From NCBI GenBank assembly GCA_963774635.1, contig CAVZFS010000026.1, positions 232,636-296,635 on the forward strand: a stretch of 64,000 nt of DNA, given 5' to 3'. Below the pieces are notes generated by a model. It did no database searches. It saw nothing but the letters and a program-made list of their open reading frames with translations, and was not told the DNA's origin. Positions within the stretch are counted from its first letter, which is position 1. Each line of letters starts with the position of its first letter. Origin of the DNA: an uncultured Acidimicrobiia bacterium (GTDB lineage: Bacteria > Actinomycetota > Acidimicrobiia > Acidimicrobiales > Ilumatobacteraceae). The translations under genes and the position numbers were made by a program. Below, in pieces: positions 2,405 through 20,483 of the stretch.

Positions 2405-4069
2405 GTGGGCGCCGGTCCTCGTCCTGTTCGTGCTCCTCGTGGCTCGCAGTTGTCCTGTCGCGGCTGGCCTCAGGAGGCGGCGTACAGGATGCTGCAGAAC
2501 AACCTCGACCCGGAGGTGGCCGAACGCCCGGACGACCTGGTCGTGTACGGCGGAACCGGTCGCGCCGCCAGGTCCTGGGATGCCTTCGATGCGATGCTCG
2601 CCACGCTGCGCACGCTCGGCGACGACGAGACGATGCTCGTGCAGTCGGGCAAGCCCGTCGGCGTCTTCCGCACGCACGAGTGGGCGCCACGGGTGCTCCT
2701 CGCCAACTCGAACCTCGTCCCGGACTGGGCGACGTGGGACGAGTTCCGCCGTCTCGAGGCGGCAGGGCTGACGATGTACGGGCAGATGACGGCCGGCTCG
2801 TGGATCTACATCGGGACGCAGGGGATCCTGCAGGGCACATACGAGTGCTTCGCCGAGATCGCCCGCCGCCGCTTCGGCGGAACACTGGCCGGGACGATCA
2901 CCCTGACCGCGGGGCTCGGCGGCATGGGCGGGGCGCAGCCGCTGGCGATCACGATGAACGACGGCGTGGCGCTCGTCGTCGAGGTCGACCCGGCGCGAGC
3001 CCAGCGACGCATCGACACCCGCTACCTGGATGTGCTCGCCCCCGACGTGGACGCCGCAGTCGCCGAGGCCGTCAAGGCGCGTGACGAGCGGCGGGCGCTC
3101 TCGGTCGGTGTCGTCGGCAATGCCGCCGAGGTGCTCCCCCGCCTGCTGGATGCGGACTTCCCGGCCGACATCGTCACCGACCAGACGAGCGCCCACGATC
3201 CGCTGTCGTACGTGCCCGTGGACGTCACGCCGGAGGCGGCGGCAGAGATGGCTCGCACCGACGCGGCGACGTTCATCCGGCGCGCCCGCGAATCAATGGC
3301 CGTGCACTGCGCGGCGATGGTGGGCTTCCTCGACCGCGGCGCCGAGGTCTTCGACTACGGCAACAGTCTGCGCGTGGAGGCCGAGCTCGGTGGCTTCGAC
3401 CGCGCCTTCGCCTACCAGGGCTTCCTGCCTGCGTACATCCGCCCGCTGTTCTGCGAGGGCAAGGGGCCGTTCCGGTGGGTCGCGCTGTCCGGCGACCCGG
3501 CCGACATCGAGGCCACCGACCGGGCGGTCCTCGCCGAGTTCCCGCACGACGAGAGCCTGGCCCGCTGGATCCGCCTGGCCGGAGAGCGCGTCGCGTTCCA
3601 GGGTCTGCCGGCGCGCATCTGCTGGCTCGGCTACGGCGAGCGCCATCGCCTCGGGCTGCGCTTCAACGACATGGTCCGCACCGGGCAGCTCTCGGCTCCG
3701 ATCGTGATCGGCCGCGACCACCTCGACTCCGGTTCGGTGGCCTCGCCGTACCGGGAGACAGAGGCCATGGCCGACGGCTCCGACGCCATCGCCGACTGGC
3801 CACTGCTGAACGCTCTCGCCAACACGGCTTCCGGCGCGACGTGGGTGTCGATCCACCACGGCGGCGGCGTGGGCATCGGTCGCTCGATCCACGCCGGGAT
3901 GGTGGCCGTCGCCGACGGCTCCGACCTCGCTGCGCAGAAGCTCGAGCGGGTCCTCACCACCGACCCCGGCACCGGCGTCATCCGCCACGCCGACGCCGGC
4001 TACGACCTCGCCCTGGAGGTCGCCACCGAGCGCGGCGTCCGCCTCCCGATGACCGAAAACCGGTTTTGA
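2405..4069 (+). CDS. hutU: urocanate hydratase
   Basis: 554-aa ORF with a GTG start. RAPRG...[36 protein letters not shown] and [14 protein letters not shown] are diagnostic of urocanase. Confidence 0.95.
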
Positions 4070-4127
4070 ATCCCGGTCAATATCGAAAACGAGGGTGAAT
4101 CTTCCAGAGAACGGCAGACTGCCGCCG

Positions 4128-4919
4128 ATGCGGATCGAGGGTGACTTCCAGCGCGACGGCGCGGTCTGTGTGCGGGGCGCCGTCTCGCCGGAGCAGCTCG
4201 AGCTCGCCGCCGAGGCGATCGAGGCCAACCTGGCCGACCTCTCGCCGCTGGCCAAGCGGGCGAGCGCCGACAGCGACGGTGCCTTCGTCGAGGACTTCTG
4301 CAACTGGTCGCGCCTGCCGGCGATCGAGACGTTCATCCGCGAGTCGGGCGTCGCCGCCATCGCCGCCGAGCTGATGGGATCGACGACGGTCCGCCTCTAC
4401 CACGACCATGTCCTGGTCAAGGAACCGGGCACCCGTCAGCGCACGCCCTGGCACCAGGACCAGCCGTACTACAACGTCGAAGGACGTCAGAACGCGAGCA
4501 TGTGGCTGCCGGTCGATCCGGTGTCCCGCGCCTCGACCCTGGAGCTCGTCGCCGGTTCCCATCGCGGCGAGTGGTACATGCCCCGCACGTTCCTCGACGA
4601 TCAGGCCAAGTGGTTCCCCGAGGGCTCGCTGACCGAGCTGCCCGACATCGACGGCCGGCCCGACGATTTCACGATCCTCGGGTGGGAGCTCGAGCCAGGC
4701 GACGCCGTCTTCTTCCACATGCTGACGCTGCACGCCGCCGGCGGCGTGCCCGGCCGTGACCGCCGACGTGTCCTGTCGGTGCGCTTCCTCGGCGACGACG
4801 CGGTGCACGCACCACGCGGGTGGACGACGTCGCCGCCGTTCCCTGGACTCGTCGACGAGCTGCCGGCCGGCGCGCCGATGGACCACCCGCTGTTCCCCGT
4901 GCTCTGGACCCGGCCATGA
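4128..4919 (+). CDS. phytanoyl-CoA dioxygenase (PhyH) family Fe(II)/2-oxoglutarate oxygenase
   Basis: The track ORF is 4095..4919 and I prefer ATG 4128 as the start. TPWHQDQPYY and GDAVFFHMLTLHAAG...RRVLSVRF fit the PhyH-type fold. Confidence 0.8.
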   Translation: MRIEGDFQRDGAVCVRGAVSPEQLELAAEAIEANLADLSPLAKRASADSDGAFVEDFCNWSRLPAIETFIRESGVAAIAAELMGSTTVRLYHDHVLVKEPGTRQRTPWHQDQPYYNVEGRQNASMWLPVDPVSRASTLELVAGSHRGEWYMPRTFLDDQAKWFPEGSLTELPDIDGRPDDFTILGWELEPGDAVFFHMLTLHAAGGVPGRDRRRVLSVRFLGDDAVHAPRGWTTSPPFPGLVDELPAGAPMDHPLFPVLWTRP

Positions 4920-4921
4920 CG

Positions 4922-4986
4922 CATTGCGTTCCCCGGCCACGCAGGCCGCAGCTGGCCGCTCGCTCGCGTGCGCTCGCTCGCTCGCA
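4922..4986 (+). repeat. 65-nt interspersed intergenic repeat, family B, copy 1 (phyH-def spacer)
   Basis: CATTGCGTTCCCCGGCCACGCAGGCCG...CCGCTCGCTCGC..GCGCTCGCTCGCTCGCA matches the reverse complement of 11731-11795 at 58 of 65 positions. It contains a CCGGCC-ACGCA-GGCCGG hairpin and a (GCTC)n tract. Confidence 0.8.
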
Positions 4987-5004
4987 CCGTGCGAAGGGTT
5001 CACC

Positions 5005-5579
5005 GTGAGCGTTCGCGAGATCGCCACCGTCGGCCACCCGATCCTGCGCCAGCGGGCTCGCGACATCACCGCCGAGAGCTGGCCTCCGCCGAGATCCAGA
5101 CGCTCATCGACGACCTCATCGACACGATGCACGACGCCAACGGCGCCGGCATCGCCGCCAACCAGGTTCACGAGCCCGTCCGCGTCGCCGTGATCGAGGT
5201 CGACCACAACCCGCGCTACCCGTACAAGCCGCCGATCCCCCTGACCGTCGTCGTCAACCCAGTGCTCGAGCCGCTCGACGACGAGCTGGTCGAGATCAAC
5301 GAGGGGTGCCTGTCCGTGCCGAACCTGCGCGGCAACGTGTTCCGCCACGTCAACGTGCGCGTCCGCTACCTCGACCGTCACGGCATCGCCCACGACGAGG
5401 TCAAGCGCGGCCTCACCGCCGGCACGTTCCAGCACGAGTGCGACCACCTCGACGGGCGCCTGTTCCTCGACCGGGTCGCTGACACGACGACGCTGACGAC
5501 ATGGGAGCAGTTCGAGCGCTTCCACCGTGACGCCTTCGTGGCGCGCATCACCGAGTTCGTCGAGCGAGTGGGTTCCTGA
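5005..5579 (+). pseudogene. def: peptide deformylase, 1-nt frameshift near codon 24 as sequenced
   Basis: From GTG 5005, frame 1 reads VSVREIATVGHPILRQRARDITAE. The rest of the protein is in frame 0 (ELASAEIQTLIDDLIDTMHDANGAGIAANQVHEP...EGCLSVPN...QHECDHLDG). GAGAG at 5074-5078 where GAGGAG is expected explains the -1 shift. Confidence 0.85.
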
Positions 5580-5582
5580 CAG

Positions 5583-5648
5583 ATGCGGCCGGCGAAGGCG
5601 CTGGAGCGCCCGCCGTGCCGAATCGGGCGTTCACGTCTGAACGACGCG
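5583..5648 (+). repeat. ~66-nt interspersed repeat, family A (MIRU-like), single copy between convergent def and PPOX genes
   Basis: ATGCGGCCGGCGAAGGCGCTGGAGCGCCCGCCGTGCCGAAtCGGGcgTtCAcGTCTGAACGACGCG has the same core as 28080-28148 and the five tandem units at 36593-36925. The core folds as GGCG-AA-GGCGCT/AGCGCC-CGCC. Confidence 0.85.
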
Positions 5649-5650
5649 GT

Positions 5651-6289
5651 TCACAGCTCACCGGCGGCGCCACCGGGCCGCCACAGGTTCTCCTGCACAT
5701 CCCGCTCCCGGGCCGCCGCGATCACCTCGACGTCGACGTCGAGGCCGACGTGATCCTTGATCATGCACGCCGCCGACGGCAGTTCCTCGGCGGGAAGCCA
5801 CTGGTCGGACGACCACAGCTCGGCGCGCCGCAGCGCCTTGGCGCAGTGCACGTAGGCCTCAGCGACGGTGACGACGACCGTGACCTGTGCTGGCTTCCCG
5901 TCCACAGCGACGCGCCGGCCGAGCTCAGGGTCCGTGACGAGCTCGGCGGCGCCGTTCACGCGCAGCGTCTCGTCGAGACCGGGGATGAGGAACAGCAGCG
6001 CGACGTGATCGTTGGTCACGAGGTTCTGGAACGAGTCGAGGCGGTTGTTGCCCGAGAGGTCGGCCCATGCCAAGCGGTGCTCGTCGAGGACCTGCACGAA
6101 CCCGGGCGGGCCACCCTTCGGCGACCCGTCGCAGACGCCGTCGGCATCGGCGGTCGACAGCACGAAGAACGGTGACTTGGCGATGAAGTCGGCGCAGTGG
6201 GCGTCGAGGTGGTGGATGACCTTCTTGATCGGGTTGGCGCCCGGGGGCCGATAGTGCTCGCGGAGGTCGGCGACGGAGGCGAGTGGCAT
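5651..6289 (-). CDS. pyridoxamine 5'-phosphate oxidase family FMN-binding protein
   Basis: The track ORF is 5651..6358. I prefer the start at MPLASVADLREHY (6289). SPFFVLSTADADGVCDGSPKGGPPGFV and LLFLIPGLDETLRVNG fit the PPOX split-barrel family. Confidence 0.8.
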   Translation of the reverse strand: MPLASVADLREHYRPPGANPIKKVIHHLDAHCADFIAKSPFFVLSTADADGVCDGSPKGGPPGFVQVLDEHRLAWADLSGNNRLDSFQNLVTNDHVALLFLIPGLDETLRVNGAAELVTDPELGRRVAVDGKPAQVTVVVTVAEAYVHCAKALRRAELWSSDQWLPAEELPSAACMIKDHVGLDVDVEVIAAARERDVQENLWRPGGAAGEL

Positions 6290-7132: not shown

Positions 7133-9599
7133 CTATCACTGCGAGTTGGCGTGGCTCGGCGACGACCAGGCCGTCGCCGATGTGCTGGTGACCATCGACG
7201 GCGACCGCATCGCCTCCGTGGATCCGGGCGGGAGTCCGCCAGCCGATGCGACCCGACTTCGCGGTCTGACGGTCCCGGGGTTCGCCAACAGTCACAGCCA
7301 TGCCTTCCATCGCGCTCTGCGCGGTCGGGCGCAGGCGGGTACCGGTTCGTTCTGGACGTGGCGTGAGCAGATGTACGAGGTGGCGGCCAGCCTCGACCCG
7401 GATCGCTACCGCGATTTGGCGCGGGCCGTCTTCGCCGAGATGGTGCAGGCCGGCATCAGCGCCGTCGGCGAGTTCCACTACCTCCACCACGGGCCCGGTG
7501 GCGTGCCGTACGACGACCACAACGCGATGGGAGCAGCGTTGATCGCCGCGGCCACGGAGGCGGGGCTGCGCATCACGCTGCTCGACACGTGCTACCTGCA
7601 GGGCGGCATCGACGTCGAGCTCGATGAGACTCAGCGCCGCTTCTCCGACGGCGACGCGCTGGCCTGGGCCACGCGAGCATCGGCGTTGCAGGACGCGCCG
7701 ACAGTTCGTATCGGCGCGGCCATCCACTCCGTGCGCGCCGTCGATCCAGCGGCGATCGAGGTGGTGGCGGCCTGGGCGGGCGAGCGCGGTGCCCCGTTGC
7801 ACGCTCACGTGTCGGAGCAGCCGGCCGAGAACGAGCAGAGCGTCGCGGCGTTCGGCCGCACGCCGATCCAGCTCCTCGCAGAGCGAGGTGCACTCAGCGA
7901 ACGGTTCACGGCCGTCCACGCCACGCACGTCACCGAGGACGACCTCGACGCACTCGGCGGCGCCGACAGCTGGTGCTGCCTGTGCCCGACCACGGAGCGC
8001 GATCTCGCCGACGGCATCGGTCCTGCGCGGGCGATGCGCGACGCGGGGGCGCACCTGACGCTCGGCAGCGACTCCCATGCGGTGATCGATCTGCTCGAGG
8101 AAGCACGGGCGGTCGAGCTCGACGAACGGCTCGCCTCCGGCGTGCGTGGGAGCCACGATGCGCCGTCGCTGCTACGGGCCGCGACGACGCACGGCCACGA
8201 AAGCCTGGGATGGCGTGACGCAGGACGGATCGAACCGGGCGCTTTGGCCGACTTGACGACGATCGCCCTCGACACCGTGCGCACTGCGGGCGGCGGTCCG
8301 GAGCACAGCATCGAGATGGCGGTGTTCGCGGCAACGGCAGCCGATGTCCACCACGTCGTCATCGGCGGTCGCGTCGTCGTGTCCGACGGGCACCACGTGT
8401 CTATCGACGTGGCAGCCGAGCTGGCCGACGCGCTGCCGATGAGCACCGTGGTCGACGGCATCGGGCTGCTCGTCACGAACACGGACGAGGGCGAGCTCGC
8501 CGACGCGTGGCTCGTCTTCGACAACGACCATGTCCTGGCTGTCGGCACGGGCGTCGCGCCGCACGCCGACGAGCGGATCGATGCGGCCGGGCGCTGTGTG
8601 ATCCCCGGGTTCGTCGACAGCCACACGCACCTCGTGTTCGCCGGCGATCGCAGTGCCGAGTTCGCGGCGCGGATGGCTGGGGCGCCGTATGCGGCGGGGG
8701 GCATCAACGTCACGATCGCCGCCACGCGTGAGGCGTCGGACGACGCCCTTGCGACGGGCGCCGCGGCCCGCTTGGCGGAGTGCCGCCGGGCGGGCGTCAC
8801 GACGGTCGAGATCAAGTCCGGGTATGGAGGGACCGTCGACGACGAGTCACGGCTGTTGCGCATCGGTCGCACGTTGACGGACGAGACCACCTTCCTCGGC
8901 GCGCACGTCGTGCCGCCGGAGTTCGAGGGTCGAGCCGACGACTACGTCGCGCTCGTCTGTGGCGAGATGCTGGCTGCAGCGGCACCGCATGCCCGCTGGA
9001 TCGATGCCTTCTGCGAGCACGGCGCGTTCGACGCCGACCAGTGCCGAGCCGTGCTCGAGGCAGGTCGAGCGGCCGGGCTCGGCATGCGCCTGCACGCCAA
9101 CCAGCTCGGGTTCGGACCCGGCGTGCAGCTCGCCGTCGAGCTCGGGTGCGCATCTGCCGACCACTGCACGTACCTCTCGGACGCGGACGTCGAGGCCCTG
9201 GCGAGCGGCACCACGGTGGCCACGTTCCTCCCGGCCACCGACTTCTCGACCCGCCAGCCATATCCCGACGCCCGGCAGGTCATCGACGCTGGAGCGACCG
9301 TGGCGCTGGCCACCAACTGCAACCCGGGGTCGAGCTACACGACTTCGATGTCGTTCGTCATCGCCCTCGCCGTGCGCGACCTGAGGATGACGGCAGCCGA
9401 GGCCGTCACGGCCGCCACGCTCGGCGGAGCGCGTGCCTTGCAGCGCGAGGATATCGGATGGCTCGGTCCCGGATCGCGAGCCGATCTCGTCGTGCTCGAC
9501 GCGCCGAACTACTCGTACCTCGTCTACCGCCCAGGCGTGCCGCTGATCTCCGAGTGTTTGGTCGGGGGATGCCCGTCGGCAGACACTCCGATCGGCTGA
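7125..9599 (+). CDS. hutF-hutI: formimidoylglutamate deiminase (HutF) and imidazolonepropionase (HutI) in one uninterrupted reading frame
   Basis: The N-terminal ~438 aa have [34 protein letters not shown] and [12 protein letters not shown] (HutF). From ATG 8439, [12 protein letters not shown]...[15 protein letters not shown]...ATNCNPGSS is HutI. There is no stop between them. I chose GTG 7125 by comparison with HutF N-termini; ATG 7095 and TTG 7146 are alternatives. Confidence 0.85.
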
Positions 9600-11800: not shown

Positions 11801-13669
<1,869 letters not shown>

Positions 13670-13754
13670 GGGAGGCTCCTCACTGGTGGGGTAGACGCGA
13701 ACGTGCACCGACCAGGTTAGGAGCAGGCACCTCCTCTGGCAACCGGGGAGTCAT

Positions 13755-14312: not shown

Positions 14313-14732
14313 CTACGGCTCGCCGCGGTAGGTGCCGAAGCTCCAGATGTTGTCCTCGAGATCGCGGACGCTGAAGCCCGTCGAGCCGTAGTCCTCGTCG
14401 CGCATCTCACGCACGATGCGCGCTCCGGCTTTGGTGGCGCGGGCGAACACGCCATGCGGATCGTCGGTCACGACGTACACCGATGCGCAGCTCGTCGGCA
14501 TCTGCGAGAACTCGCTCTCGGGCCGGTCCGCCGTCCCGAGCATGACCCCGCCGCCTTCCGGCCACCGCAACTCGCAGTGCTCGACGATGTCATCGGTCGA
14601 CCCGGGAACGACGAGTGACTCGACGAATCCGAAGGCCTCGGTCAGGAACTCGATGGCCGGTCGGGCATCGCGGTAGTTCACGCACGGCCACACCGTTTTC
14701 TGTACTTCATCCATGTCGTCACCCTCCTCCAT
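14313..14732 (-). CDS. VOC (glyoxalase/bleomycin-resistance) family protein
   Basis: 139 aa. VNYRDARPAIEFLTEAFGF and GSTGFSVRDLEDNIWSFGTY are typical of the VOC fold. An alternative start is at 14714. Confidence 0.8.
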   Translation of the reverse strand: MEEGDDMDEVQKTVWPCVNYRDARPAIEFLTEAFGFVESLVVPGSTDDIVEHCELRWPEGGGVMLGTADRPESEFSQMPTSCASVYVVTDDPHGVFARATKAGARIVREMRDEDYGSTGFSVRDLEDNIWSFGTYRGEP

Positions 14733-15576
14733 CGGGGGCGTCGAGGTCTTGGACGAATGGGAGCTGTTCGTCGGCCAGCCACGCCGACGGGCTGGAGCCG
14801 GCGAGGACGTGCCACTCCCGCGTCATGTGCGCCTGATCGGCATACCCGCACTCGGCGGCGACCCTGGCCAGCGAGGGCTGGTCGTTCTGCACGAGCATCC
14901 ACCGGGCCCGCTCGAATCGCAGTACACGAGCCAGCGCCTTCGGGCCGACGCCGTACTCGGCGGAGAACCGGCTCGTCAGGTGGCGGCGGCTCCAGCCGAG
15001 CTCGTCGGCCAACGTGGCGACGTCGACGAGCCCGTGCAGCTCGGCCAGCCGGCGGAACGCCTCCGCGGCTTCAGGTCGGGCACCCGACGGAAGATCCATC
15101 GTCGTCGAGAGCACGCGCAGCAGGACCCCGTCGAGGGCCCGGAAGCGGGCCGGCCAGTCCTCGGCAGACGCCAAGCGTTCGTACAGCTCGGCGGCGAGGC
15201 GACCCCAGAGCACATCGAGCGTGACGACGGTCGACGCCAGCTCGCCAGCCGGCATACGGAACAGGGCCCGTGAACCCTCTGGCGTCACCTGCAGCTGGAT
15301 GCCGTGCTGGTTGCCATCGTGGCGGATGACGGCCGGCGTCGTGTGCAGCCCGCCGACCAACGTGTCGAACCGCTCGGTGCGCTGCGATCCATCGGGCAGC
15401 CGGGTCAGCTCGAGCGGCGCATCGAAGGCGACGATGAACGTGAGATGACGCGAGGGCAGCCCCATGTGCTCGCCGGGTGCGAAGCCGGAGAAGTGGTAGC
15501 CGACGTATGACTCGACGTACGGGCGCAGCACGTCGGGGGGGCGGCGCACGAAGCTGTCGTTGACGACGGCGCTCAT
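14719..15576 (-). CDS. AraC family transcriptional regulator
   Basis: The track ORF is 14719..15834 and the start is at MSAVVNDSF (15576). The C-terminal part, LADELGWSRRHLTSRFSAEYGVGPKALARVLRFERARWML...CGYADQAHMTREW, is the AraC double HTH. Confidence 0.85.
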   Translation of the reverse strand: MSAVVNDSFVRRPPDVLRPYVESYVGYHFSGFAPGEHMGLPSRHLTFIVAFDAPLELTRLPDGSQRTERFDTLVGGLHTTPAVIRHDGNQHGIQLQVTPEGSRALFRMPAGELASTVVTLDVLWGRLAAELYERLASAEDWPARFRALDGVLLRVLSTTMDLPSGARPEAAEAFRRLAELHGLVDVATLADELGWSRRHLTSRFSAEYGVGPKALARVLRFERARWMLVQNDQPSLARVAAECGYADQAHMTREWHVLAGSSPSAWLADEQLPFVQDLDAPDGGG

Positions 15577-15683
15577 CTCGTGCAAACGGTATCGGCGGGG
15601 GTTGATGCGGCCGCCGAAGCGCCTGGAGGCGCCGGCGTGCCGAACCGGCTGATCGCCCCAACACGCGGCCGCGGGTCGGCCGA

Positions 15684-16751
15684 TCAATATCGCTCGGTGA
15701 GGTGCTCCCGGCCCGGCGGTGGTTCGTACGCCTCCGGCCAGAAGTCGGTGATGCCCGTGATCAGCCCGTCGGCGACCTCGAAGAAGGCGATGCCGTCGGC
15801 CGGCGGCGCATCGGCGACGTGCCACGCGAACCACACGACGGCACGTCGGTCGTCGCCGAGCACGACGCGTGGCGAGAGGTGCCAGTCGCCGGGGTACTCG
15901 CGGTTGAACTGCACGTAACGCTGCCGGCCACGGATGCGCTCCCGCGTCTGCGGCACTTCGTACACGACGTCGGGGTGGAGCAGGAGCCCGAGCTCATCCC
16001 ACTGGCGACGTTCCAACGTGTCGACGAATCGCCCCGCCAGCGCCTGCGCCACGACGGGCGGGTCAACACGAGCGAGGAACGCGCGCAGCACCGCGTTGAA
16101 CTCCGCCGGGTGCGTCACCGGCGGCGCATGGCCGGCGCCGGCGATGACGGCGAGCTCGGCGTCGGGCATCTTCTCGGCCATGTAACGCGACCCGGCGAGG
16201 AATGCTTCGTCGAGCTCACCGACCACCACCAACGTCGGCACGGCGATCGACGGCAGGGCCTCGATCACGTGGCCGTCGACCTGCGGCAGCACATGCCGCG
16301 CGCTGTGGGCGAGACCGACGGCGCCGGGATGGTGAGCGGCACTCAGCTCAGGGCTGCCGCTCAGGCTCTGCAGACCGCGGGCATCGAGACCCGCGGCGTA
16401 GCGCTCGGCCATCTCGTTCCACTGCGCGCGCCCGCGGTCGCTGCGATACCCCGGGCCCGTGTCGACCAGGACGAGCGCCCGAACGTCATCCGGATGCGCC
16501 AGTGCGTACTCGAGCGACAGGTAGCCGCCGAGCGAGTGGCCGAGCAGGACGGCCTGATCGGCGCCCGCCTCTTGGAGGAGCGAACGCATCGCCGCGAGCG
16601 ACGCGGCGACCGAGTACTCGCCAGGATCATCAGGCGCATCGCTGCTGCCGTGGCCGAGCTGATCCCAGGCCACGACGGTGCGATCGTCGGTGAGAGCGGC
16701 GACAGTCTTGGCGAACATGTGCGATGTCGCGGCAAATCCGTGGGTCAGCAA
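15684..16751 (-). CDS. alpha/beta hydrolase fused to a C-terminal SnoaL/NTF2-like domain
   Basis: LLTHGFAATSHMF, GHSLGG (the nucleophile elbow) and GAGHAP are followed by a ~120-aa NTF2-like tail. The homologous N-terminus (TGSAIATSSIFHQVTGHGPTI) continues upstream of TTG 16751 without an ATG, GTG or TTG, so the start is uncertain. Confidence 0.8.
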   Translation of the reverse strand: MLTHGFAATSHMFAKTVAALTDDRTVVAWDQLGHGSSDAPDDPGEYSVAASLAAMRSLLQEAGADQAVLLGHSLGGYLSLEYALAHPDDVRALVLVDTGPGYRSDRGRAQWNEMAERYAAGLDARGLQSLSGSPELSAAHHPGAVGLAHSARHVLPQVDGHVIEALPSIAVPTLVVVGELDEAFLAGSRYMAEKMPDAELAVIAGAGHAPPVTHPAEFNAVLRAFLARVDPPVVAQALAGRFVDTLERRQWDELGLLLHPDVVYEVPQTRERIRGRQRYVQFNREYPGDWHLSPRVVLGDDRRAVVWFAWHVADAPPADGIAFFEVADGLITGITDFWPEAYEPPPGREHLTERY

Positions 16752-16950
16752 AATCGTCGGGCCGTGGCCCGTGACCTGGTGAAAGATCGAGCTGGTGGCG
16801 ATGGCGGAGCCTGTCAGGCGGCCGTCGTGCGCTCAAATCTTGGAAACATTGCCGTAACAGTGTCATGATCCGGGTTCCCTGGTCGCCGCGGACGACAAGT
16901 AGGGGCGGGACAGGGCTTGGAATCATCCATCAACAATTGGAGGGCAAGTA

Positions 16951-17778
16951 GTGCGGTACCAGTTCAAGAAGTGGCACGGTGTGGCCGCTCTGAGCGCGGC
17001 GGGGGTCTTCGTACTCCCTGCTGTCGCCAGTGCGCAGGAGGCGACCGACATCGTCGATCAGTTCTCCGTGGTCAACATCGGCCTCGTTCAAACGGCGCTG
17101 TCCAACAGTGGCCTCAACTTCCAGGACAACACTGTTGCCCAGGCGAACGTCACGGAGCAGTTGTCCGAGTCAGAGGCCAACGGCGGTGACGCCGTCGCGA
17201 CGTCCGACGCCGCCGTCGCCGATGCTCTTTCGGGCTTCGGCGGCGTGTCTGCCGCAGGGAACGCCGCTGAGTCGACGAACGACAGCACCGGCGACAACTC
17301 GCAGACCACGGGTGCCGCTGTTGCGGCGAACGCGGTCTCCGGGTCCGTGAGCCAGTCCCAGGACAACACGTCCGACAACTTCGCGGAATCGCTGGGCGAT
17401 AGCGCCACGGCAATCGCGGCGTCGGCTGTCGTCCAGACGTCCGAGGTGAACATCGGAATCGACCAGACGGCGCTGGCGAACAGTGGCCTGAACTTCCAGG
17501 ACAACACCACGGCCCAGGGCAACGTGACCGAGCAGCTCGCGTTGAGCAGCGCCAACGGCGGGGACGCGGTAGCGACCTCGGCTGACGAGGAAGCGATCGC
17601 CACGTCCGGTGACGGCGGCGACTCGGCCGCAGCCAATGCGGCGAGCTCTGCCAACAGCTCGTCGGGCGGCAACTCGCAGACCGCGGGTGGAGCAACGGCT
17701 TCCAACAGCTCGAGCTTCGACGTCTCCCAGAGCAGCTCGAACTCGAGCACCAACACGGCAACCGGAGACACTGACTGA
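16951..17778 (+). CDS. secreted two-repeat Asn/Gln/Ser/Ala-rich protein (candidate surface-fibre subunit)
   Basis: GTG start 8 nt after GGAGG. There is a signal peptide (MRYQFKKWHGVAALSAAGVFVLPAVASA/QEA). The mature part has two ~126-aa repeats, each starting VNIGxxQTALxNSGLNFQDNTxAQxNVTEQL...ANGGDAVATS, and contains no K, R, H, C, M, W, Y or P. Confidence 0.8.
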   Translation: MRYQFKKWHGVAALSAAGVFVLPAVASAQEATDIVDQFSVVNIGLVQTALSNSGLNFQDNTVAQANVTEQLSESEANGGDAVATSDAAVADALSGFGGVSAAGNAAESTNDSTGDNSQTTGAAVAANAVSGSVSQSQDNTSDNFAESLGDSATAIAASAVVQTSEVNIGIDQTALANSGLNFQDNTTAQGNVTEQLALSSANGGDAVATSADEEAIATSGDGGDSAAANAASSANSSSGGNSQTAGGATASNSSSFDVSQSSSNSSTNTATGDTD

Positions 17779-17793
17779 TCTTCGGCTGAACTT

Positions 17794-17826
17794 GCAGAGG
17801 GGTGGGGCACTGCCCCACCCCTCTGC
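17794..17826 (+). terminator. strong stem-loop (15-bp perfect stem, 3-nt loop) between the subunit gene and the LPXTG gene
   Basis: GCAGAGGGGTGGGGC-ACT-GCCCCACCCCTCTGC lies 16 nt after the 17778 stop. There is no U-tract, so it may act as an attenuator or RNA-stability element rather than a full terminator. Confidence 0.55.
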
Positions 17827-17882
17827 GAACCCCGTGAACCATCTGGGCACGGGTTGCGGTAGAGGGATGCGCGGAGGTACGA

Positions 17883-20009
17883 GTGCGGCGGACGGGCAGG
17901 GCGGCGGTGGTCGCCGTCACGGCGCTGGTCATGTTGATCAGCGCAGCCCCGGTTGGGGCGGAAGAAGAAGGCAGCCAAGGCGCCGAAGCGGCGGCGGCCG
18001 AGGCGGAGGCTCCCTCGGAGGAGCAGGCGGCGGATTCGACGGTGCCGGCCGAGGCCACGCAGACCGCGGAGCCGCCGGAAGCATCAGACGACAGTCCGCC
18101 AGCGAGCGTGCAGGACGATGCGCCGCCGGACAGCACGGCTCCGGCGCACGAGGCGCCACCGAGCACCGAGTCCACAACAGAGTCCACCGCTGAGGAGGCT
18201 GCGCCGAGCGCGTCGCAGCCCACCGCGACGGCGCTGCCGGCGACGAACAATTCGTCCACCAGCGCCAGCGCGTCCGACGATGCGCATGCGGCACCCGCGG
18301 CGCAATTGGCGGCGACGACCAGCGAGACGGGCCAGCAGACGACGACGATCACCGGCACCGCGATCGCAGTCGCCACGAGTGGTGGGAACGTAGCCATCGC
18401 CACCGGTTCCCAGAGCGATGACGGTGACTCACAACCGGCCATCCTCGGCACAGGCCCCGCCGCCGCCAGCGGCAGCGACGATGAGACCAGTGTCGTCCAG
18501 GAGGCCACCGCGGTGCTGACAGGCGGCGCCACCGCAGACATCACGCAGGTGGTGCTCGTGTTCAACATCGGCGCGGCACTCGCCAACAGCGGCCTCAACG
18601 TCATCGGAGGCGGCGGCACCGATGGATCGCAGATCTCGACCGGCTCGGCCACGGCGGTCGGCAACGACGCCGCGTCGTACATGACGCAGGCCGCAACCTC
18701 GGACGCGTCGGCCGGTGGCACCGATACGGCATCGCAGCTGGCGGTGAACCTCCGCATCGGCGTCGCGGTCGCCGACTCCGGCAACAACGTGGTGGTCGTC
18801 TCGGGCCCGGGCGGGAGCGTCGGCGGAGTGATCGACGCCGGTGCAGCAAACGCCACCGGCAACCAGTCGCTCACCGAGATCGTGCAGCGCGCCTTCGCCA
18901 CCGGCAGTGGCGCCGCGCACCTGACGATCGAGCAGCGGGCCACCGTGATCAACCTCGGCCTCGCCATCGCCAACAGCGGCATCAACACGGTGCGCGGCCT
19001 TGCCGGCTCCCTGATCAACGCACCCGACGAGTTCATCGCTCGCGAGTTGTTCGCGCTGATCCTCCCTGCGCTGCTGGCGTCGATCAACACGGGCGACGGG
19101 ACCGGTGCCGGAGGGACCATCGCCTCAGGCGAAGCGACCGCCATCGGCAACCGCTCCGAGACGTACATCGACCAGAACGCCATCGCCACGGCGAGCGGCG
19201 ACGGCACCGCGTCGATCTCCCAGGATGTCATCGTCGCAAACGTCGGCGCCGCGGTCGCCAACTCGGGCGCCAACCAGCTCGGCAGCAGCGCCAGCGAGCC
19301 CGCCGCGCTCGACGCGGAGGGAATGCGCATCGCCACCGAGCTGGGCCAGTTCCTCACCGATCTCCTCGAAGAGATCGAACGGTGGAGCCTCGTTCCGGGC
19401 GGGGCGCCGCTCAACATCTCCCTGCAGCTGCCGTTCGGCGACCTCGTCATCGGCCTCGACGCAAGCGTCGGCGGGAGCCACACGACGGTTGAGTCGTCGA
19501 ACGCACAGGCGACGATCCGCCAGGTCACCGCGATCATCAGCATTGGCATCTCTCGCGCCAACACCGGATTCAACGCCACGTCGCTGCAGGTGGGCGCCGA
19601 CCTCGCGGCGATCACGGCCGCCGCCGCGGCGAGCGGAGGAGTGTCGGTCACCACCGGCGATGCCTCGGCCGACAACACGAGCCTGGTCATCGTCTGCCAG
19701 AAGGACGACGCCGCAGCGTACGAGTGCCTGCGGCCAGTCGATCCGGTGACGCCAGTGGACCCGGTCGACCCGGTCGACCCGGTCGATGCGGTCGATCCCG
19801 CCGGTCAAGCAGGTCCGACGGTGCAGGGCGCGACGGGGTCGCGCCCGGTCGCCTTCGCATCGGCTGGGCGCACAGCGACGGGCGCAACGAGTGCCAGTCG
19901 TCAGCTTCCGGCGACCGGGATCGACGTCGAGCTGCTGCTCATCGTCGGCGCCGCTCTGGTGGTCGTCGGAGGGCTGCTGACGAGGGTGCGGCGGCGCGCC
20001 GAGGCATGA
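17883..20009 (+). CDS. LPXTG-anchored surface protein with ANSG-N / GN-x-Q repeat modules
   Basis: 708 aa with a signal peptide (...LISAAPVGA/EEE) and an acidic E/A/P/S-rich stalk. Five motif copies are present: FNIGAALANSGLNV, RIGVAVADSGNNV, INLGLAIANSGINT, ANVGAAVANSGANQ, ISIGISRANTGFNA. A (PVD)n linker follows, then the C-terminal LPATG + hydrophobic helix + RVRRR sortase signal. Confidence 0.85.
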   Translation: MRRTGRAAVVAVTALVMLISAAPVGAEEEGSQGAEAAAAEAEAPSEEQAADSTVPAEATQTAEPPEASDDSPPASVQDDAPPDSTAPAHEAPPSTESTTESTAEEAAPSASQPTATALPATNNSSTSASASDDAHAAPAAQLAATTSETGQQTTTITGTAIAVATSGGNVAIATGSQSDDGDSQPAILGTGPAAASGSDDETSVVQEATAVLTGGATADITQVVLVFNIGAALANSGLNVIGGGGTDGSQISTGSATAVGNDAASYMTQAATSDASAGGTDTASQLAVNLRIGVAVADSGNNVVVVSGPGGSVGGVIDAGAANATGNQSLTEIVQRAFATGSGAAHLTIEQRATVINLGLAIANSGINTVRGLAGSLINAPDEFIARELFALILPALLASINTGDGTGAGGTIASGEATAIGNRSETYIDQNAIATASGDGTASISQDVIVANVGAAVANSGANQLGSSASEPAALDAEGMRIATELGQFLTDLLEEIERWSLVPGGAPLNISLQLPFGDLVIGLDASVGGSHTTVESSNAQATIRQVTAIISIGISRANTGFNATSLQVGADLAAITAAAAASGGVSVTTGDASADNTSLVIVCQKDDAAAYECLRPVDPVTPVDPVDPVDPVDAVDPAGQAGPTVQGATGSRPVAFASAGRTATGATSASRQLPATGIDVELLLIVGAALVVVGGLLTRVRRRAEA
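19734..19799 (+). repeat. in-frame 9-bp coding tandem repeat (Pro-Val-Asp)n in the stalk of the LPXTG protein
   Basis: CCAGTCGAT CCGGTGACG CCAGTGGAC CCGGTCGAC CCGGTCGAC CCGGTCGAT GCGGTCGAT encodes PVDPVTPVDPVDPVDPVDAVD. Two units are identical. Confidence 0.8.
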
Positions 20010-20483
20010 CCGGGATCCAGCGGGTCGCGATCGCCATGGCGGTGGTCGCCGCTGGATCGCTGGCCGGATGCACGAACGACAGCGCGTCGCCGGACCCATC
20101 GCCACCACGGTCGAACACCACCGATCCGACGATCGGGACGAAGGCGCCGTCGCGCACGGCCACGTCGACGACCGTGTCCACGACGGCCTCGAAACTCATC
20201 GACAACTTCGTCGACAACCGTGTCGACGTCGGCGGCCAGCCCGTCAGGTTCCTCCAGTCAGCAGACGGTGGTGCGCACCGACGGCGGCTCGATCGAGGTC
20301 CGCGGCAACGGTGACGTGCTCGAGGTCATCGACATCAGCCCCGCCGACGGCTGGGAGGTGCAGGTCGATCAGCCCGACGACCGCCGGCTCATCGCCTCGT
20401 TCACGAGCGATGGCGGACGTTCCGAGGTGACGATCGTGCTCACGGACCAGGGGATCCAGACCTCGACGCGCGCCACGAGCTAG
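20006..20483 (+). CDS. lipoprotein translationally coupled to the LPXTG gene; probably frameshifted as sequenced
   Basis: ATG 20006 overlaps the upstream TGA (ATGA). MTGIQRVAIAMAVVAAGSLAGC is a lipobox signal. After ~20225-20262 this frame turns into Arg-rich nonsense, while frame 0 (track ORF 20220..20483) reads a plausible beta-rich domain, TVVRTDGGSIEVRGNGDVLEVIDISPADGWEVQVDQ... Confidence 0.55.

Follow-up and report, generated by a model that had tools for sequence, protein, structure and literature searches.

Systems that combine an anchored nucleator with a secreted subunit are few, curli, Fap and the chaplins among them. The chaplins of Streptomyces comprise the short ChpD-H and the long, sortase-anchored ChpA-C, covered by the Pfam family Chaplin/DUF320 (PMC3079736, PMC5618241), and in their presumed logic the anchored protein serves as tether or template for a layer of the secreted one on the surface. 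The curli proteins CsgA and CsgB are made of strand-turn-strand repeats, described by the Pfam family Curlin_rpt (PMC10192328). Here we describe a gene pair that resembles these systems in organization, found in a 64,000-nucleotide stretch of DNA (hereafter the window) from an uncultured bacterium of the class Acidimicrobiia (family Ilumatobacteraceae; assembly GCA_963774635.1, contig CAVZFS010000026.1), a class whose envelope biology is little studied at the gene level. Gene A encodes a secreted, acidic repeat protein; gene B, directly downstream, encodes a long repeat protein with an LPATG sorting signal; gene C, which overlaps the end of B, encodes a lipoprotein. The A-B module is a lineage-specific variant of the combination of an anchored protein with a secreted partner on the Gram-positive surface. 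Its two products probably function together at the cell surface, and our preferred, tentative reading is that A assembles on B into a wall-attached, beta-rich coat or fiber.

Comparison with described systems

Like the chaplins, the module is actinobacterial and joins a small secreted subunit to a longer one with a sortase signal. The differences are considerable, however. We found no sequence or profile match to chaplins, and A and B have no demonstrable common domain. Mature A is hydrophilic and strongly acidic, whereas chaplin peptides are hydrophobic and surfactant-like; it measures about 250 residues with repeats of about 115 residues, as against a chaplin domain of about 40. The A and B genes are strictly adjacent and their hosts are Acidimicrobiia. 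A preliminary description of the window, made from the letters alone, had seen in the pair the chaplin logic of a short secreted and a long anchored protein with one motif in common; this does not hold beyond analogy. With curli the module has in common imperfect strand-turn-strand repeats (predicted here) with alternating conserved Gln, Asn, Gly, Ala and Ser, a major secreted and a cell-bound minor subunit, and an accessory lipoprotein gene in the cluster. On the other hand, there is no Curlin_rpt match and no csgEFG context, the unit of B is about 58 residues long (19-23 residues in curlins), with strands of about 20 residues, and the repeat of A about 115, the envelope is Gram-positive with sortase anchoring in place of CsgG/CsgF, and the lipoprotein is small and not conserved across loci. 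FapC, of the Pseudomonas FapC/FapB functional amyloid, is also a repeat protein with long beta-strands and was the best fold match of the B model in the Protein Data Bank (PDB), yet that match is not significant, there is no sequence similarity and no fap operon context, and the envelope is of another kind. Finally, B carries the full tripartite sorting signal of generic LPXTG substrates, but this label covers its last ~40 residues only; the 470-residue passenger and the obligate A partner are undescribed in the libraries searched.

Profile searches agreed with this picture. At E<=1, Pfam returned no Curlin_rpt, Chaplin, TasA/camelysin or other family for A, B or their distant members, the anchor of B excepted, in line with the preliminary description, which had recognized the motif as neither curlin nor chaplin. 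NCBIfam likewise gave nothing beyond the LPXTG anchor for A, B, C and distant partners, searches of PDB sequences with the B profile and with C found no relatives, and we found no description of the A or B families in the literature. Judged by their sequences, A and B belong to no described family in the libraries searched. Weak matches of A to NLPC_P60 (19.9 bits, cut-off 23) and to StbA_N fell below cut-off and were judged compositional, as were those of the C domain to DUF7383 and of the third genes of other loci to PknH_C and PsbP.

Conserved linkage of A and B

Homologues of B numbered 64 in a collection of 5.8 billion proteins, with no Pfam domain besides the anchor. Where they are named, the name is only 'LPXTG-motif cell wall-anchored protein' and the organisms are Desertimonas flava and Ilumatobacteraceae. 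A genome scan with a narrow alignment returned eight loci, all from Acidimicrobiia. A is rarer, with 7 close homologues; among 1.84 billion 50%-identity representatives, a profile search gave 35 matches only, multi-repeat giants of 730-890 residues included. Records with names are all from Acidimicrobiia; relatives come from soil and water metagenomes and metagenome-assembled genomes (MAGs), and cluster look-ups yielded no informative names.

Hidden Markov model (HMM) searches of the open reading frames (ORFs) of the loci showed that wherever a B-like gene occurs, an A-like gene lies immediately upstream of it. Twelve distinct loci carry the pair: the window, L001 (=L006), L002 (=L003=L004=L009), L005, L007, L008, L010, L011, L012, L013, L014 and L016. 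The linkage persists at 34% B identity in L014, where the sorting motif reads LAFTG, and at 29% in L013, where the B homologue P0071 has an A-like partner of 1042 residues (2640-5768) with roughly eight repeats. That a short secreted protein is paired with a long one of sortase type, as pointed out in the preliminary description, is thus a strongly conserved feature. In some long-read MAGs, frameshifts disrupt the genes.

Gene A is tandemly duplicated in L001 (=L006; 8092-8823 and 9150-9884) and in L005 (3897-4829 and 5075-5884). The window carries a single copy, unlike these two loci, which are its closest relatives. Giant A-like proteins of 730-1042 residues (L013; P0080, P0084, P0106-P0117) hold about 7-8 repeats of ~110 residues and also carry extra Gly/Ala-rich hydrophobic segments.

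Protein B

The product of gene B begins with a predicted signal peptide for Sec export (MRRTGRAAVVAVTALVMLISAAPVGA, cut ahead of EEE; read by eye), which is conserved in close homologues. Its C-terminus scores above the curated cut-offs of Pfam Gram_pos_anchor (PF00746; 23.3 bits, cut-off 20) and of TIGR01167 (20.1 bits, cut-off 15.9), and B falls into the LPXTG sortase-substrate class by its tripartite signal, in agreement with the signal peptide and LPATG signal first described for this 708-residue protein. Of the 53 members of the B family, 46 retain the motif L[PA]x[TSA]G; six of the remaining seven have Arg- or Cys-rich, frameshifted-looking tails and one ends before the motif. The acidic residues 27-145 are weakly conserved and variable in length across the family. 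They had been described as a stalk, and the acidic region does exist, but it is N-terminal and forms the end most distant from the wall; the wall-side spacer is instead the Pro-rich C-terminal linker, where the (PVD)n sequence noted earlier was recovered as a tandem array with a 9-bp period.

Between the acidic region and the linker lies the beta-repeat domain. A unit HMM identified five full units of ~58 residues (188-243, 248-305, 314-372, 410-467 and 513-566; E 1e-14 to 1e-21), flanked by half units at both ends and interrupted by helical inserts at 371-399 and 478-502. A conserved pair of cysteines, Cys605/Cys615 (C-Q-x9-C), closes the domain. Pooling the five units from 53 B homologues gave 263 unit sequences, with the ~58-residue consensus.g.i.tGdAtAiGn.s.t.v.Q.A.a...g.a.a.i.Q.a.vlN.G.A.ANSG.N.v.g. 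Five motifs of the form h-N-h-G-x-A-h-A-N/D-S/T-G-x-N (227-239, 290-302, 356-368, 452-464 and 552-564) alternate with TG-x-A-x-A-x-GN-x-S-...-Q strands, so that the earlier account of five ANSG-N motifs interspersed with GN...Q segments stands.

AlphaFold2 (AF2), run with a 53-sequence alignment, gave a best model of B with a mean predicted local distance difference test (pLDDT) of 68.6 and a predicted template modeling score (pTM) of 0.63. In this model each unit is predicted to form two ~20-residue strands joined by a 2-4-residue turn, mostly at pLDDT >90, with short return strands at the TGx and SGxN turns, while residues 1-145 and 617-680 are disordered. Conserved residues alternate along the predicted strands: the first carries G, A, A, G/N, S, T, Q, A and the second Q, A, V, N, G, A, A. 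This suggests one face of conserved small and amide residues and another that is variable. Mutual information with average product correction on the 263 pooled units was dominated by between-unit differences and yielded no strand-contact signal.

Protein A

Gene A starts with GTG and encodes a predicted Sec-type signal peptide (MRYQFKKWHGVAALSAAGVFVLPAVASA, followed by QE) that is invariant among close homologues. No more than 12 residue types make up the mature protein (A, S, G, T, N, D, V, Q, E, L, I and F), with 12% Asp+Glu, 16% Asn+Gln and 27% Ser+Thr; Pro is absent. Its two repeats of ~115 residues each align without gaps at a BLOSUM62 score of 325. The ORF, the signal peptide, the set of 12 residue types and the presence of two repeats (put there at ~126 residues) thus match what had been reported of this secreted 275-residue protein before. 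The statement that it is charge-poor was mistaken: mature A carries 30 acidic residues (20 Asp, 10 Glu), Lys, Arg and His are all lacking, and its net charge is near -30. This composition is a family trait, since acidic residues make up 10-18% in 17 of 18 A-family members and Lys and Arg are both missing from 12 of 18, as fits a durable extracellular structural protein.

When the 18 family members are aligned, Asn, Gln, Gly and Ala occupy the invariant positions, which fall on every second residue, in the patterns Q-x-A-x-A-N-S-G-x-N-x-Q-x-N-x-T-x-Q, N-x-A-x-S-x-N, T-G-x-A-x-A-x-N and V-S-Q-x-Q-x-N-x-S-x-N. The strongest peaks of the conservation spectrum lie at periods of 2.04-2.11 residues, and the power near period 2 was reached by none of 1,000 shuffles. 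Such a period points to beta-strands with one constrained face and not to an unconstrained, disordered polyanion. Read in this way, A may be composed of strand-turn elements of ~20-24 residues, each closed by a Gly-containing turn, a length that matches the strands of B.

A and B alike encode a signal peptide, and each is preceded by a strong Shine-Dalgarno sequence. In a window of ~70% G+C, they are real genes and not GC-rich ORF artefacts, because G+C at third codon positions (GC3) is 0.84-0.86 and both have homologues at the protein level. An 846-residue ORF on the opposite strand (17150-19690, -) was rejected as such an artefact; it overlaps the sense genes with their high GC3 and conserved homologues, and its high content of Arg, Pro, Ala and Ser is what the reverse frame of a high-GC gene would give.

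Patterns common to A and B, and the hairpin between them

The pattern [AS]N[ST]GxN stands at invariant columns in both families, with two occurrences in A and four in B where our composition estimate leads one to expect ~0.02 and 0.007, respectively. When the unit profile of B was aligned to A by hhalign, it fell on residues 114-181, on TTGAAVAAN..VSQ and VVQ..IDQTALANSGLN, with weak statistics. The common motif noted in the preliminary description is therefore real as a short pattern, though not as a sign of homology, for which the comparisons below (hhalign, HMMER) give no significant support.

The stem-loop that follows the stop codon of A folds with 17 pairs, among them the 15-bp perfect core that had been noticed beforehand, and the whole 110-nucleotide intergenic region folds at -58.7 kcal/mol (z=-4.5). 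It lacks a T-run and is not a canonical T-run terminator; a scan for sigma-70 promoters and T-run terminators found no sites, and neither Rfam nor tRNA scans of the window gave any match. A GC-rich stem-loop 3' of the A stop was present in eight of nine loci examined (the window, L001, L005, L002, L007, L008, L012 and L014) with sequences that differ between loci, and was not evident in L013, the ninth. Owing to the stem-loop, A transcripts are probably more abundant than B transcripts, with a presumed effect on stoichiometry. The recurrent hairpin and the tandem duplication of A in relatives fit the notion of A as the abundant subunit and B as the minor, anchored one. The coordinates of all features of the module are collected in Table 1.

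Table 1. Features of the A-B module and of gene C, with positions counted from the first nucleotide of the window.
Feature	Position	Strand	Description and basis
Shine-Dalgarno-like GGAGGG	16939..16944	+	Direct read; 6 nt 5' of gene A GTG
Gene A	16951..17778	+	ORF, GTG start, 275 aa, secreted; GC3 0.84; no described family
A signal peptide, residues 1-28	16951..17034	+	Predicted Sec-type; cleavage after ASA likely
A repeat 1, residues 31-145	17041..17385	+	Gap-free self-alignment with repeat 2
A repeat 2, residues 156-270	17416..17760	+	Self-alignment and family alignment
GC-rich stem-loop	17792..17828	+	GCAGAGGGGTGGGGC/GCCCCACCCCTCTGC; 15-bp perfect core, 3-nt loop
Shine-Dalgarno GGAGG of gene B	17873..17877	+	Direct read
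Gene B	17883..20009	+	ORF, 708 aa, LPATG wall-anchored repeat protein; GC3 0.86
Acidic N-terminal low-complexity region, B residues 27-145	17961..18317	+	P/S/T/A-rich, predicted disordered, pLDDT 31-46
Beta-repeat domain, B residues 147-616	18321..19730	+	Predicted; AF2 strands, unit HMM, invariant columns
(VDP)n Pro-rich wall-side spacer	19737..19800	+	Tandem Repeats Finder: period 9 bp, 7 copies; pLDDT <50
B sorting signal	19905..20006	+	LPATG 19905-19919, hydrophobic helix, basic tail RVRRRAEA
Gene C, lipoprotein	20006..20483	+	ATGA coupling to B; lipobox, S/T-rich linker, ~70-aa C-terminal beta-domain

A model of assembly and its alternatives

Under the reading that we prefer, B would be exported by the Sec pathway, cut by sortase at LPATG and linked covalently to peptidoglycan, and the (VDP)n spacer would keep its beta-repeat domain, five and a half units of ~58 residues, off the wall. 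With two ~20-residue strands per unit, this domain would display one face of conserved Gly, Ala, Ser, Thr, Asn and Gln. The stem-loop would raise A transcripts over those of B, and A, made in excess by virtue of the stem-loop and, in relatives, of gene duplication, would be secreted as an acidic, beta-prone protein whose strand-turn elements of ~20-24 residues are similar in length to those of B and which carries the short B motifs TG-x-A-x-A-x-N...Q and Q-x-A-x-A-N-S-G-x-N. It would then dock onto B or be templated by B, and self-associate. The product would be a wall-attached, hydrophilic, polyanionic, beta-rich coat or fiber, to which the translationally coupled third gene (here for a lipoprotein) may contribute a variable accessory factor. 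The interaction of A with B and the polymerization are what we infer in this model. Overall, what the preliminary description had observed is partly confirmed and, apart from four corrections, stands well above chance; its interpretation is partly supported, and the likeness to chaplins and curli would be a reasonable analogy to work with.

A number of results weigh against assembly of A on B. Homology of the two proteins is not demonstrable, and as far as their sequences tell they have only short motifs in common: hhalign of the full A and B profiles gave a probability of 3%, the unit profile of B against A gave P=0.0023 and a probability of 12.6%, and HMMER profiles of the two families matched in neither direction. 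The structural check that had been proposed came out only in part. Stacked or paired strands of ~20 residues were indeed predicted for B, yet the five AF2 models span pLDDT 46-69 with confident strands in the best one only, AF2 is known to return over-confident beta-solenoids for repeat sequences (PMC11795689), and the strands of the model could form either a parallel solenoid or an antiparallel meander. The AF2 model of A, from nine sequences, is unreliable (pLDDT 41, pTM 0.21) and, going by that model, A could be largely disordered; it was left out of the fold search for its low pLDDT. Searching PDB and BFVD by Foldseek, we found no match to the B model at E<=0.001, and no fold relative speaks for a fiber. 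The third gene is neither conserved across loci nor intact in the window, where it carries a frameshift. Lastly, an A-like gene encoding P0105 (338 residues; L015 5001-6017) occurs without a B gene in a prophage-like region, beside genes for an endolysin with a PG_binding domain, a collagen-like tail fiber, a transglycosylase, phrog_5686 and an SNF2 helicase. PHROGs had no match for A or P0105 and a scan of viral contigs with P0105 found nothing; P0105 may represent a surface-subunit copy on a mobile element.

Several of these points would be explained if A and B were independent and merely co-regulated, with B a stand-alone wall adhesin or surface shield and A a soluble, largely disordered polyanion, for example a cation-binding or matrix-conditioning factor that does not assemble on B. 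The low AF2 confidence throughout A, its extreme low complexity with 10-18% acidic residues across the family, the lack of demonstrable homology to B and the solitary gene of L015 all agree with such an account. We nevertheless consider it rather unlikely: the two genes adjoin in 12 of 12 loci despite deep divergence, which one can hardly account for unless they are functionally linked, short motifs recur in A and B at invariant columns, and the strict conservation of Asn, Gln, Gly, Ala and Thr with period 2 is unlike a disordered polyanion. On sequence grounds, the ~2-residue period on N/Q/S/T/G/A positions likewise argues against pure disorder of A. The same ladders of conserved Gln, Asn, Gly, Ala and Ser at every second residue of A and B, together with the long paired strands of the B model, FapC as its best, though non-significant, PDB match, the absence of Pro from an Asn- and Gln-rich mature A and the conserved order of major subunit, hairpin and minor anchored subunit, can also be read as marks of a true functional amyloid. 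B would then be the wall-anchored nucleator on which A polymerizes into cross-beta or beta-solenoid fibers that bind thioflavin T and Congo red and resist sodium dodecyl sulfate, like curli (CsgB/CsgA), Fap and chaplins. This, too, is doubtful. Neither A nor B is homologous to curlin, chaplin, Fap or TasA, and the best PDB match of the B model, the FapC amyloid (9u4u), is not significant (E 2e-3, probability 0.12, TM-score normalized to target 0.16). AF2 gives no confident fold for A and has a solenoid bias on repeats, and a very hydrophilic A with a net charge near -30 disfavors spontaneous cross-beta stacking unless cations screen it. That the A-B assembly in particular is a true amyloid or solenoid fiber we regard as unlikely.

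Two further explanations carry much less weight. The regular N-x-T-x-Q, S-x-N-x-S and GGD-A-x-A motifs, the strongly acidic A and the origin of relatives in soil and water metagenomes and MAGs are compatible with flat beta-sheet arrays of Thr, Ser, Asn and Asp, by which A and B would order water or bind ice, Ca2+, metals or mineral surfaces, as in repetitive antifreeze, ice-nucleation or RTX-like adhesins, polymerization not being the main role. However, neither A nor the body of B has a Pfam or NCBIfam match, hence none to ice-binding, ice-nucleation (INP) or RTX families, the canonical GGxGxD nonapeptide periodicity is absent, and the conserved face of small and amide residues is more probably of the buried or packed interface type than an exposed array of TxT type; such a role is therefore highly improbable. 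A sortase-polymerized Gram-positive pilus, with A as shaft pilin and B as base or tip pilin, is brought to mind by a protein with an LPXTG signal next to a smaller secreted one. It is effectively refuted by sequence and we rejected it: mature A has no Lys, and with it no pilin-motif nucleophile and no residues for isopeptide bonds, and no LPXTG or other sorting signal; pilin, Cna-B or FctA-type Pfam matches are missing, and there is no sortase gene in or beside the module.

Returning to the assembly of A on B, were A to polymerize in this way, an independent family would join the anchored-nucleator and secreted-subunit systems named at the outset, and a hydrophilic, acidic fiber scaffold free of Lys and Arg would be of possible interest for materials engineering. 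A new Gram-positive class of functional amyloid or beta-solenoid, with A as major subunit and B as wall-anchored nucleator and so far confined to Acidimicrobiia, is a prospect that we would hold with little confidence. If this is so, the fiber, with its strands of ~20 residues, would be of unusual width and polyanionic, would contain neither Lys nor Arg and would have no sequence relationship to curli, Fap, chaplins or TasA; the variable third gene would serve in assembly or control, and prophage-borne A-like genes might modify the surface structure. Conserved, lineage-specific and absent from the libraries searched, the A-B pair offers a testable candidate for a major surface structure of Acidimicrobiia, and B a candidate for a new beta-repeat architecture with strands of ~20 residues. 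Even if A does not polymerize, the pair defines two protein families that are new, in an operon whose architecture is tightly conserved, and these would deserve family models.

The gene downstream of B

The stop codon of B overlaps the ATG of gene C (ATGA, 20006-20009), and the start of C encodes a lipobox, LAGC, at 20060-20071 (MTGIQRVAIAMAVVAAGSLAG ahead of the Cys), as in its orthologues. The coupled lipoprotein gene seen in the preliminary description is thus present, but its frame is broken. The span of 478 nucleotides is not divisible by 3; a stop codon closes the frame of the lipoprotein at 20314, and a different frame (20220-20483) encodes the C-terminal domain. We located a 1-nucleotide frameshift near 20188-20190, at an AAA run within the S/T-linker, which is a 12-bp tandem array (20163-20227). 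Deletion of one base restores an ORF of 158 residues, colinear in a DNA alignment with the intact 161-residue orthologue of L001. Either a sequencing error in the homopolymer or a genuine slip, possibly phase-variable, could account for the shift. C therefore has the lipobox of a bacterial lipoprotein without the intact frame.

The idea that the three genes are conserved as a trio was not borne out. Lipoproteins matching the C profile occur in about half of the loci (the window, L001/L006, L005, L007 and L016) and are replaced or absent elsewhere. L013 has a weak match (E 9e-4) with the same layout of lipobox, linker and small domain. The third gene is a weakly PknH_C-like secreted protein in L014 (8031-8789) and an unrelated exported protein of 197 residues in Desertimonas (L002 12007-12600), each overlapping the B stop by 4 nucleotides, and L010 and L011 have no third gene after B. 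L013 also carries a second, weakly PsbP-like lipoprotein further downstream of B (8746-9459).

Gene neighborhood

The module lies a few kb from dnaK-grpE-dnaJ and a His_Phos_1 gene (window 11801-13708, -). This proximity recurs in L001, L016 and the very divergent L013, and the shared position suggests old vertical inheritance. The flanking genes vary between lineages. Those noted encode DnaK, cytidine deaminase, glyoxalase, AraC, alpha/beta-hydrolase, M14 carboxypeptidase, SnoaL and a major facilitator superfamily transporter; they are housekeeping or unrelated to the module, which thus appears to stand alone. For sortase, no ORF with a TLxTC motif was found in the 64-kb window and none among the module neighbors; 13 LPXTG ORFs have been reported in Ilumatobacter coccineum (PMC3910706).

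Several minor features of the upstream side were also seen. Gene A of the window is preceded by a gene fusion of alpha/beta-hydrolase and SnoaL (15684-16751, -), and no counterpart of it was called between AraC and gene A in L001. Regulators occur upstream of the module in several loci: an AraC-type gene in the window (14719-15834, -) and in L001, and genes of OmpR/Trans_reg_C type in L013 (1568-2344) and L014 (4216-4947).

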